From: an uncultured Gemmatimonadales bacterium
GTDB taxonomy: Bacteria; Gemmatimonadota; Gemmatimonadetes; Longimicrobiales; RSA9
Reading direction: 5' to 3'
DNA length: 64,000 nucleotides
NCBI GenBank assembly: GCA_963708135.1
Contig: OY970192.1
Coordinates: 4,416,001 to 4,480,000 of the forward strand
Translations under genes and position numbers: made by a program
In this document: one piece after another, positions 1,739-1,988 of the stretch
Numbering within the stretch: the first letter of the stretch is position 1
How the letters are laid out: each line of letters opens with the position of its first letter
The notes under the pieces: model-generated
Databases searched by the model: none
What the model saw: the letters and a program-made list of their open reading frames with translations, nothing else
Told to the model about the DNA's origin: nothing

Positions 1739-1776
1739 AAAAAAGCCCGGCCCTCTCGTCGGAGAGAGGGCCGGGC
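1739..1776 (-). terminator. Intrinsic terminator in the metY leader (attenuator hairpin)
   Basis: Minus strand GCCCGGCCCUCUC-UCCGAC-GAGAGGGCCGGGC-UUUUUU: perfect 13-bp stem plus U6, ending 23 nt before the metY ATG. Confidence 0.92.
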
Positions 1777-1807
1777 CGGGTCTCGAGCCGCTCGGCTCGA
1801 AATCTCG

Positions 1808-1906
1808 TTACACGCTCGCTATAGGCACGCGTGCACGCCCGTCCGCCTCTCCCACGGGAGAGCCGCACATGCACGTGCACATGACCATGGCCTGACGAGC
1901 GAACAT
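1808..1906 (-). CDS. Putative Met/Cys-rich attenuator leader peptide, 32 aa: [32 protein letters not shown]
   Basis: ATG at 1906, TAA at 1810-1808; 6 of codons 7-14 are Met or Cys; lies between promoter and terminator; below the ORF-track length cutoff. Confidence 0.8.
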
Positions 1907-1958
1907 GTCTGTTCCGCTTCCGGGTTGCCGTTTCCGGGCTGCCTTCGATCGGCCGCGG

Positions 1959-1988
1959 ATGGTAGCAGCGGCGGCCCGCCGCTGTCAA
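1959..1988 (-). promoter_or_regulatory. Sigma70-type promoter of the leader-metY-metX operon
   Basis: TTGACA (1988-1983), 18-nt spacer, TG-extended TACCAT (1964-1959). Confidence 0.75.

Follow-up and report, generated by a model that had tools for sequence, protein, structure and literature searches.

Introduction

The genes of methionine biosynthesis are commonly controlled by S-adenosylmethionine (SAM)-class riboswitches, T-boxes or protein repressors. Attenuation by a translated leader peptide is the textbook mechanism for operons concerned with Trp, His, Thr, Leu, Ile/Val and Phe, with trpL, hisL, thrL, leuL, ilvL and pheL of the Proteobacteria as examples. Here we describe an element in front of the methionine genes metY and metX, which is most probably a ribosome-mediated (leader-peptide) transcription attenuator reporting the supply of charged Met-tRNA and Cys-tRNA. 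It is located on the minus strand of a stretch of 64,000 nucleotides, in the following called the window, from an uncultured Gemmatimonadales bacterium (assembly GCA_963708135.1, contig OY970192.1, positions 4,416,001 to 4,480,000), and was compared with 49 distinct elements of the same kind. This interpretation is drawn from sequence and rests on the anatomy of the leader, its conservation, the behavior of the codons, the frame-specific placement of the stop codon, covariation in the terminator and in the protector stem, and the set of downstream genes.

With the classical attenuators the element shares a short upstream open reading frame (uORF) with codons for the products of the pathway, mutually exclusive pairings of a protector, a putative antiterminator and a terminator, and an intrinsic terminator before the first structural gene. 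It differs from them in the use of Met and Cys codons, in its occurrence in Gemmatimonadota and in the reuse of one conserved RNA scaffold before several operons. Furthermore, the stop codon of the uORF follows the antiterminator strand instead of preceding it, and the Shine-Dalgarno (SD) sites of the uORFs are weak. The spread of classical leader-peptide attenuators is discussed in PMC2965389.

Leader peptides with Cys codons have been described in other bacteria. For the cys and cbs operons of actinobacteria, PMC1262725 reports Cys leader peptides for which no terminator hairpins were found, and according to this source the methionine operons of Actinobacteria had no visible RNA elements upstream. 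In mycobacteria, polycysteine leaderless small open reading frames were proposed as attenuators of a "Cys ribulon" that act on translation (bioRxiv 10.1101/834739). In such leaders, operons of sulfur metabolism are controlled by ribosomes that stall on the Cys codons of a short leader ORF, and several loci with the same device make up a ribosome-directed regulon; the element studied here resembles them in the Cys codons of its short leader ORF, in the association with operons of sulfur metabolism and in the sharing of one device by several loci. They are Cys-only, whereas in the element studied here Met prevails, a 5' leader is predicted and all 49 copies have a strong intrinsic terminator. 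The mycobacterial type, which is characterized in that source as leaderless, Cys-only and dependent on the unmasking of a downstream ribosome binding site, is not matched, since the predicted transcription start lies about 46 nt before the AUG, Met codons are present and the metY SD is unpaired and located past the terminator. Closer in layout is uORFC-8-2 before cysS of Rhodobacterales. PMC8632094 proposes that this motif, with its conserved AUG, its tandem Cys codons in a stem and a terminator including a U-run, is a ribosome-mediated transcription attenuator. Like the element in the window, it combines Cys codons in a stem with a terminator; it differs in having two Cys codons only and no Met codons, in preceding a tRNA synthetase gene and in belonging to alpha-proteobacteria, and no sequence relation was found (no Rfam match).

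A literature search, with most subscription journals outside its coverage, yielded no description of a Met or Met/Cys leader-peptide attenuator and none before metY; within the same scope nothing was found on such elements or on SAM-II riboswitches in Gemmatimonadetes. The literature searched agrees with a first-pass annotation of this DNA, made from the sequence alone, which had suspected that the device is undescribed for metY-metX; Cys-only leader attenuators are already in print. New are the proposed Met/Cys specificity, the conserved cassette, which in Gemmatimonadota is reused before several operons that make up a regulon, and the frequent serial coupling to SAM-II. A permissive scan with Rfam 15 over positions 1400-2400 of the window gave as best match an unrelated small RNA model (E = 0.18, 20.8 bits), which was driven by the terminator. 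In scans of the 49 loci at the Rfam gathering thresholds SAM-II was the only family found, always upstream of the element and never within it. The leader thus matches none of the known SAM riboswitch classes, one of which the first-pass annotation had considered as a competing identity, and a reading of the leader as a SAM riboswitch or T-box was rejected for lack of an Rfam family match.

Organization of the metY leader

The following features were assigned on the minus strand of the window, given in the order of transcription.

1959..1988, minus strand: sigma-70-type promoter-like site of predicted function (TTGACA 1988-1983, 18-nt spacer, TACCAT 1964-1959)
1906..1808, minus strand: leader uORF of 32 codons plus the stop codon TAA at 1810-1808, from the ORF reading
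1888-1865, minus strand: regulatory codon run M-V-M-C-T-C-M-C, uORF codons 7-14, which doubles as the 5' strand of the protector stem
1847..1862, minus strand: hairpin P1 of the minimum free energy (MFE) fold, CUCUCC 1862-1857, loop CGUG, GGAGAG 1852-1847
1836..1856, minus strand: putative antiterminator strand CGUGGGAGAGGCGGACGGGCG, pairing with 1777-1758, i.e. the terminator 5' arm and loop
1817..1839, minus strand: protector stem 3' strand GGCGUGCACGCGUGCCUAUAGCG, partner of the Met/Cys codon run
1783..1800, minus strand: small middle hairpin UCGAGCC-GAGC-GGCUCGA of the MFE fold, right behind the uORF stop codon
1739..1776, minus strand: intrinsic terminator with a 13-bp stem and U6; 5' arm 1776-1764 (GCCCGGCCCTCTC), 6-nt loop 1763-1758, 3' arm 1757-1745, T6 1744-1739
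405..1727, minus strand, SD included: metY, O-acetylhomoserine sulfhydrylase of 436 aa; SD AGGAG 1727-1723, ATG 1715-1713, stop codon 407-405
1..420, minus strand: 5' part of metX (homoserine O-acyltransferase), which continues past the window start; its start codon is not fixed

The first-pass annotation had placed the promoter, the 32-codon uORF with MVMCTCMC, the 13-bp terminator with U6 and the SD and ATG of metY at these minus-strand positions, and all of them were found there. The two antiterminator segments that it had named, GGGAGAGG (1853-1846) and CGGGC (1841-1837), are also located exactly where it had put them. With 10 of 12 positions matching, the promoter-like site is the sole one in window positions 1-6000 (0.2 in shuffles); it would place the start of transcription about 46 nt before the AUG of the uORF. 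The 5' arm of P1 lies 2-8 nt past the last Cys codon, and the distance from the uORF stop codon to the terminator arm is 31 nt in the window copy.

The MFE fold of the segment 1960-1735 has an energy of -121.7 kcal/mol (z = -4.96), which was reached by 0 of 200 shuffles. It contains the protector stem, in which the Met/Cys codons are paired with GCGUGCAC... and GCGUGCACGCG, the enclosed hairpin CUCUCC-CGUG-GGAGAG, the middle hairpin and the terminator. The protector pairing around this hairpin, as read by eye in the first-pass annotation, was thereby recovered by folding. The G+C-rich terminator hairpin folds at -34 kcal/mol, the duplex of the putative antiterminator at -29.2 kcal/mol, and the metY SD, which sits 3' of the terminator, is unpaired in the MFE fold. 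Most relatives have a hairpin of variable sequence at the place of the middle hairpin. The trp/his-type layout that had been claimed for this leader, with the antiterminator as a putative pairing, holds in the window and in the 49 related copies.

Conservation and distribution of the element

Among 60 related genomes, close metY orthologues with 79-83% identity were found in 11, and 10 of these 11 carry the uORF, the hairpin and the terminator upstream, so that the conservation of a Met/Cys-rich uORF in relatives, on which the first-pass annotation had made its proposal depend, was observed. The uORF runs before these orthologues read, for example, MMCMCMC, MCMCCMC, MCMMMCM and MHMHMCM. The same 10 upstream regions share the motif GGCUCUCCC-loop-GGGAGAGRCGGRCGG and a terminator built on CCCGGCCCUCUC. 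The exception (L006, G056:C103) is a metY leader without a Met/Cys uORF, with a terminator on a related CCCGGCCCUCUC arm; by eye it contains a SAM-II-like sequence, which had no Rfam match at the gathering threshold.

A BLAST search with the 176-nt leader in 401 genomes of the same order gave matches with E <= 0.01 in 117 of them, many of which cover the terminator arm alone. Among the matches listed, 34 besides the query span at least 120 of the 176 nt; one of these is in the unpublished genome G106 and one is a second copy in the genome of the window. After removal of duplicates, 49 distinct elements were aligned (alignment A1), none of them from unpublished genomes. Nearly every named public record in this set has Gemmatimonadota, Gemmatimonadaceae or Longimicrobium in its title. 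When 185,579 species, each represented by one genome, were scanned for an exact pattern, 25 loci were detected, of which 22 are full elements. For 20 of the 22 the record title names Gemmatimonadota, Gemmatimonadetes, Gemmatimonadaceae, Longimicrobium or Longimicrobiales; the other two are in records titled "uncultured bacterium". The three loci outside Gemmatimonadota (Verrucomicrobiales, Xanthobacter and Chthoniobacterales) have no Met/Cys uORF and no terminator and were discarded as partial or chance matches. A scan of metagenomes with a looser pattern returned at least 120 loci; among the matches listed, nine had an nhmmer match to the element, namely two duplicates of known copies, one weak partial match (L145) and six new elements. 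Four of the six new elements have a readable next ORF, which is metY-like in three cases and LLM (luciferase-type) monooxygenase-like in one. On a metagenome contig (L112) a divergent element was observed with a uORF reading ...MGMCMCMCSCVRRLPAGE..., followed by an ORF similar to the C-terminal part of an LLM monooxygenase with an in-frame stop; this ORF may be a broken gene or contain a sequencing error.

A profile search of the whole genome of the window revealed two strong copies and one weak, degenerate copy. The second strong copy is 0.6 Mb away (L061 3448-3605, minus strand; G000:C1:5014947-5015094). It reads MNGSHRTPNALPMCACCMCMRGSPVGETGGARAGGMR, and its uORF contains ...PMCACCMCMRGSPVGE.... 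The weak third copy (nhmmer E = 7e-6) is located at about L093 2100-2215 on the minus strand (G000:C1:5250100-5250213) and consists of CGCUCCC-GCA-GGGGAGAGGCGGCCGGG and a U7 terminator without a Met/Cys run (uORF MLGTRNSWTAQRNPRSRRGE...). It directly precedes a tRNA-Asn(GTT) gene (L093 2010-2082, minus strand), which is an odd position for an attenuator-like leader.

The Met/Cys codon run

In the best 8-codon window of each uORF, at least four Met/Cys codons were counted in 47 of the 49 elements and at least five in 41. Of the 377 run codons, 320 are ATG (159), TGC (134) or TGT (27). Both synonyms for Cys are used, and Met codons are about as many as Cys codons (159 ATG, 161 TGC plus TGT). The runs vary by whole codons, as seen in MCMCMC, MCMCCMC, MCMMMCM, MHMHMCM and MAMRMRMM. 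Met is the more constant residue; Cys positions are elsewhere occupied by His, Tyr, Ala or Arg, and three runs are Met-only.

For a frame test the reading frame was picked by its Met/Cys content alone. In all 49 elements the first stop codon of this frame after the run falls 20-43 nt upstream of the terminator 5' arm, compared with 9 of 49 in the +1 frame, in which 32 elements are without any stop, and 20 of 49 in the +2 frame. Equivalent uORFs are present in all 49 elements and have, as scored, 26-59 codons in 48 of them (one was scored from TTG). The peptide past the run is not conserved. P1 is read in different frames (GSPVGE, SALPAGE, GSPSGRGGR), with changes in loop length and spacer shifting CUCUCCC...GGGAGAG between frames, and because it is conserved across these differing frames P1 is an RNA element and the run a codon element. 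Taken together, these comparisons show at the level of sequence that the run behaves as codons.

In 17 of the 49 leader peptides (L002-L004, L012, L034, L037, L038, L041, L051, L053, L057, L059, L065, L067, L068, L073 and L076) Pro-Pro-Gly directly follows the Met/Cys run, since P1 reads CCCCCCGGG. Pro-Pro-Gly is a strong EF-P-dependent pause motif, which might give these leaders a second pause.

Pairing of the leader RNA

The terminator hairpin is strong in 49 of 49 elements, with energies from -21 to -39 kcal/mol. In alignment A1, 93.8% of the cells of P1 and terminator together are paired, with double changes at 10 pairs in 24 cells; this was reached by 0 of 500 shuffles, and in slid registers 41-62% of the cells are paired. 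Over the 49 sequences the terminator alone is paired in 96.3% of the cells and has compensatory changes at 8 of 13 pairs. For P1, which is a plain hairpin with a variable loop of 3-5 nt, 89.8% of the cells are paired and compensatory changes occur at 2 of 8 pairs.

The protector stem, formed by the codon run and the segment after GGGAGAGGCGGACGGG, is paired in 83.8% of the cells in a fixed register. If the register is left free, cognate strands pair with a mean of -21.7 kcal/mol, compared with -20.5 +/- 0.34 kcal/mol for permuted partners, and 2 of 5000 permutations are as good; relatedness of the sequences inflates this permutation test, which is therefore supportive rather than conclusive. 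In 35 of 49 elements the stem has z < -2 against a shuffled partner. As an example, the run AUGCGC (Met-Arg) is matched by the partner GCGCGUGCGCG.

In the putative antiterminator, GGGAGAG-R-CGG-R-CGGGCG would pair with the 5' arm of the terminator and with the flank upstream of this arm. Its duplexes have energies from -22 to -43 kcal/mol, and 89.8% of the cells are paired over the 49 sequences, compared with 44-64% in slid registers.

Folding with a ribosome footprint

To mimic a ribosome on the leader, transcripts were cut before the terminator 3' arm and folded with all bases as far as 12 nt beyond the A-site codon held unpaired. The terminator 5' arm was counted as sequestered if at least 60% of it was paired with upstream sequence. 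With the ribosome stalled in the middle of the run, 47 of the 49 elements have a sequestered arm (the window copy with 11 of 13 arm bases), and with the ribosome at the last Met/Cys codon this is the case in 48 of 49 (again 11 of 13). With the ribosome at the stop codon the arm is sequestered in 5 of 49 elements, and without a ribosome in 24 of 49, with 4 of 13 arm bases in the window copy in both cases. In these predicted folds the mask on the Met/Cys codons releases GGGAGAGGCGGACGGGCG for the terminator 5' arm in the window copy and in 48 of 49 elements, and in 48 of 49 the strand that pairs with the arm starts from GGGAGAG. Folding under a footprint, to which the first-pass annotation had pointed, hence separates a stall in the run (48 of 49) from the stop codon (5 of 49).

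In the full-length RNA the terminator is always part of the lowest-energy fold. The choice between the structures therefore has to be kinetic, as in classical attenuators.

Downstream genes and tandem arrangement with SAM-II

The product of metY in the window matches NCBIfam TIGR01326 with 664 bits (cutoff 495) and also PF01053. The next frame is metX-like; MetX families are its top NCBIfam matches, with 282 bits and under the curated cutoffs, for the full frame (locus L001), which extends beyond the window. For the part of the metX frame that lies inside the window, a Pfam search with its first 140 residues had no match.

The first gene after the element codes for MetY in 29 of the 49 loci, for a RimK-like ATP-grasp protein in 8, for a short aspartokinase in 3, for MetX in 2, for homoserine dehydrogenase (hom) in 2, for the sulfite reductase CysI in 1 and for a SusC/RagA-type outer-membrane receptor in 2; in 2 loci, one of them at a contig end, it is unknown. 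The elements are located directly upstream and on the same strand, and the candidates for regulated genes make homocysteine and precursors of Met and Cys. This gene set is as expected for a Met/Cys sensor. The second copy in the genome of the window precedes an ATP-grasp gene followed by a gene for an SfnG/SsuD-like LLM monooxygenase, whose best family is the dimethylsulfone monooxygenase SfnG (259 bits, cutoff 383), which suggests that the ATP-grasp and monooxygenase genes are an organosulfur-scavenging operon under the same control.

From a small number of cases, the codon run appears to follow the regulated gene. Thr and Met occur together in each of the three aspartokinase leaders (e.g. 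MKFGTRMMMRMTT), and the Met-only run MAMRMRMM was found in the MetX leader L044 and in the near-identical L040, the gene of which is lost at the contig end. The three aspartokinase-like genes themselves (L043 1672-2514, plus strand; L049 686-1492, minus strand; L063 2050-2898, minus strand) code for 269-283 aa and contain the kinase part alone of models of about 400 aa; they may be split or truncated forms.

In 15 of the 49 loci, all of which were scanned at the Rfam gathering thresholds, a SAM-II aptamer (RF00521, 36.9-52 bits) is located just upstream of the uORF (L007, L008, L013, L032, L036, L039, L040, L042, L044, L045, L053, L056, L065, L084 and L090). By gene class these are 9 MetY, 3 MetX (counting L040), 2 hom and 1 ATP-grasp loci. 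The riboswitch is located 39-152 nt upstream of the conserved leader segment, the start of which is 58 nt from the 3' arm of P1, and in several tandem loci the start codon of the uORF lies inside this spacer. By eye, a G+C-rich segment and a U-run are present between SAM-II and the uORF in each of the 15 loci. SAM-II with its own terminator and the leader would thus form a serial tandem with two checkpoints, one for the SAM level and one for tRNA charging. SAM-II likewise controls met genes; the leader module is a separate second checkpoint, and the metY leader of the window is without a SAM aptamer. Tandem riboswitch architectures exist, and the mgtA leader of Salmonella combines a Mg2+ riboswitch with the Pro-codon uORF mgtL. 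The tandem loci resemble this leader in that a metabolite-sensing RNA and a second sensor are placed in one mRNA leader. They differ in that the sensors are serial, each with its own terminator, and in that the second would sense the translation of Met/Cys codons.

In the genome of the window no SAM-II was found at either leader. The single SAM-II-like match in this genome has 31.7 bits (cutoff 36) and is located at L092 1501-1578 on the minus strand (G000:C1:3453231-3453308), where the aptamer-like sequence and a terminator-like hairpin stand upstream of a metK-like ORF (MSREYVLTSESVSEGHPDKVADR...). In this genome, metK thus seems to be under SAM sensing and metY-metX under the leader peptide.

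The gene upstream of the metY leader (2008-3201, minus strand) codes for a membrane-type protein of 397 aa with DUF5924 (PF19346, 89.5 bits) and is apparently unrelated to the attenuator.

Proposed mechanism and alternative explanations

In the proposed mechanism transcription would begin about 46 nt before the uORF, and a ribosome would translate the 32-codon leader while RNA polymerase approaches the terminator. With ample Met and Cys the ribosome would reach the stop codon and on its way unwind and cover the G-rich antiterminator strand; with this strand covered the 13-bp terminator would form and transcription would end at the U-tract. If charged Met-tRNA or Cys-tRNA is short, the ribosome would stall in codons 7-14, and its footprint would open the protector stem and cover CUCUCC, the 5' arm of P1. 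The freed GGGAGAGGCGGACGGGCG could then capture the terminator 5' arm as it emerges, and the polymerase would continue into metY-metX. Without a ribosome, the protector stem and P1 would hold the antiterminator strand, so that termination is the default. The translation of the uORF, the stalling, the kinetic choice of structure and the response to Met and Cys are the steps that we infer.

Several observations weigh against this mechanism. The sensing of Met by stalling would be problematic, as initiation on the leader also needs Met-tRNA. The SDs of the uORFs are weak, the window copy having merely GGAA/GGAAG, while the metY genes have clear AGGAG-type sites; the mean anti-SD energy of the uORFs is -3.1 kcal/mol compared with a background of -2.9 kcal/mol, with 16 of 49 at or below -4. 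In the footprint folds, shuffling of the middle region still left the arm sequestered in 76% of the folds, compared with 98% observed; as the C-rich arm will pair with any strand that is rich in G, the informative comparison in this folding is that of the stall site with the stop codon. In the cut transcripts without a ribosome the antiterminator is the lowest-energy fold in 24 of 49 elements, and the protector must therefore win kinetically.

Further points concern the antiterminator itself. Over the 49 sequences its columns are nearly invariant and no covariation was found (159 of 500 shuffles were as good), and a test of cognate against permuted strands for its flank helix was not significant (717 of 2000). 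Its energies are better than those of base-shuffled strands by 1.6 standard deviations (mean z -1.6), with z < -2 in 11 of 49, a weak contrast because G-rich and C-rich strands pair whatever the base order. The invariance could be explained by three-way pairing constraints among P1, antiterminator and terminator, because CUCUCCC and the terminator arm would both have to be matched by the G-rich strand, and the terminator arm in addition by its own 3' arm. Of the covariation that the first-pass annotation had called for in all three pairings, that in the terminator and in the protector stem was thus detected and that in the antiterminator was not. Its central proposal, that a stalled ribosome allows antitermination, is backed by the mask folding, which frees the strand in the window copy and in 48 of 49 elements; the antiterminator as such stands on complementarity without covariation.

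The strong conservation of P1, antiterminator and terminator could equally be compatible with a factor acting in trans. In that case the CUCUCCC/GGGAGAG hairpin with GCGGACGGGCG would bind a protein or a small molecule, and the AUGUGC repeats would merely be a helix strand. Within GGAGAGGCGGAC, seven positions do not vary over the 49 sequences, which come from three families, the antiterminator is conserved without covariation, the AUGUGC repeats pair with a downstream strand of alternating GC/GU, and the uORFs are without good Shine-Dalgarno sites, all of which would fit such a switch. We nevertheless consider it unlikely, since the run varies by whole Met/Cys codons with TGT used besides TGC, the positioned stop occurs in the Met/Cys frame in 49 of 49 elements compared with 9 and 20 of 49 in the other frames, and the composition of the run tracks the regulated gene (Met-only, Met/Thr). 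In addition, P1 is a plain hairpin without the multi-helix junction typical of aptamers, no Rfam family matches, and the three-way pairing constraints alone could account for the invariance.

Two other explanations take the ORF or the terminator on its own. A functional Cys/Met-rich micropeptide, metal-active, redox-active or a precursor peptide, the transcript of which is merely ended by the terminator, would agree with a conserved short Cys/Met-rich ORF that has its own promoter-like site. It is highly improbable, because nothing is conserved outside the run, the C-terminal half changes frame among orthologues while the RNA stays constant, run length and order vary freely, and the elements always immediately precede, on the same strand, genes of sulfur or aspartate-family biosynthesis. 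At a G+C content of about 70%, open frames are frequent whatever the frame, and the upstream DUF5924 gene ends at 2008, so a chance ORF in a G+C-rich spacer beside the ordinary terminator of this gene was considered as well. We give it hardly any credence: a promoter-like site stands between the DUF5924 gene and the uORF, the module is kept in 49 copies before different downstream genes and with unrelated upstream neighbors, and the frame test speaks against chance. The leader-peptide attenuator remains the preferred explanation.

Biological significance

Beyond the single leader, the elements may represent a phylum-specific "Met/Cys ribulon" of Gemmatimonadota, an extension for and against which we see even chances. 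One cassette with a near-fixed RNA scaffold would have been copied before many operons of sulfur and aspartate-family metabolism; the sites are metY-metX, metX, hom, aspartokinase, cysI, the ATP-grasp/sulfone-monooxygenase operon and the SusC-type receptor. Simple editing of the codon run would have re-programmed it, with Met/Cys before sulfur genes, Met-only before metX and Met/Thr before aspartokinase, and in a third of the cases it would act in series behind SAM-II, so that expression would need low SAM together with poorly charged tRNA.

If the leader-peptide mechanism is true, Met, and Met together with Cys, would join the amino acids that are sensed by stalled ribosomes, in a poorly studied soil phylum, and the 49 uORFs would represent unannotated genes. 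Reading Met limitation by elongation when initiation on the same leader needs Met-tRNA would be a puzzle of its own. The elements would also demonstrate that one attenuator cassette can be reused, with a few codons determining its specificity, and with SAM-II in series they would constitute a natural two-input gate that combines a metabolite signal with a tRNA-charging signal. For Gemmatimonadota, the regulon would tie the ATP-grasp/LLM monooxygenase operon and the SusC-type receptor to sulfur supply.

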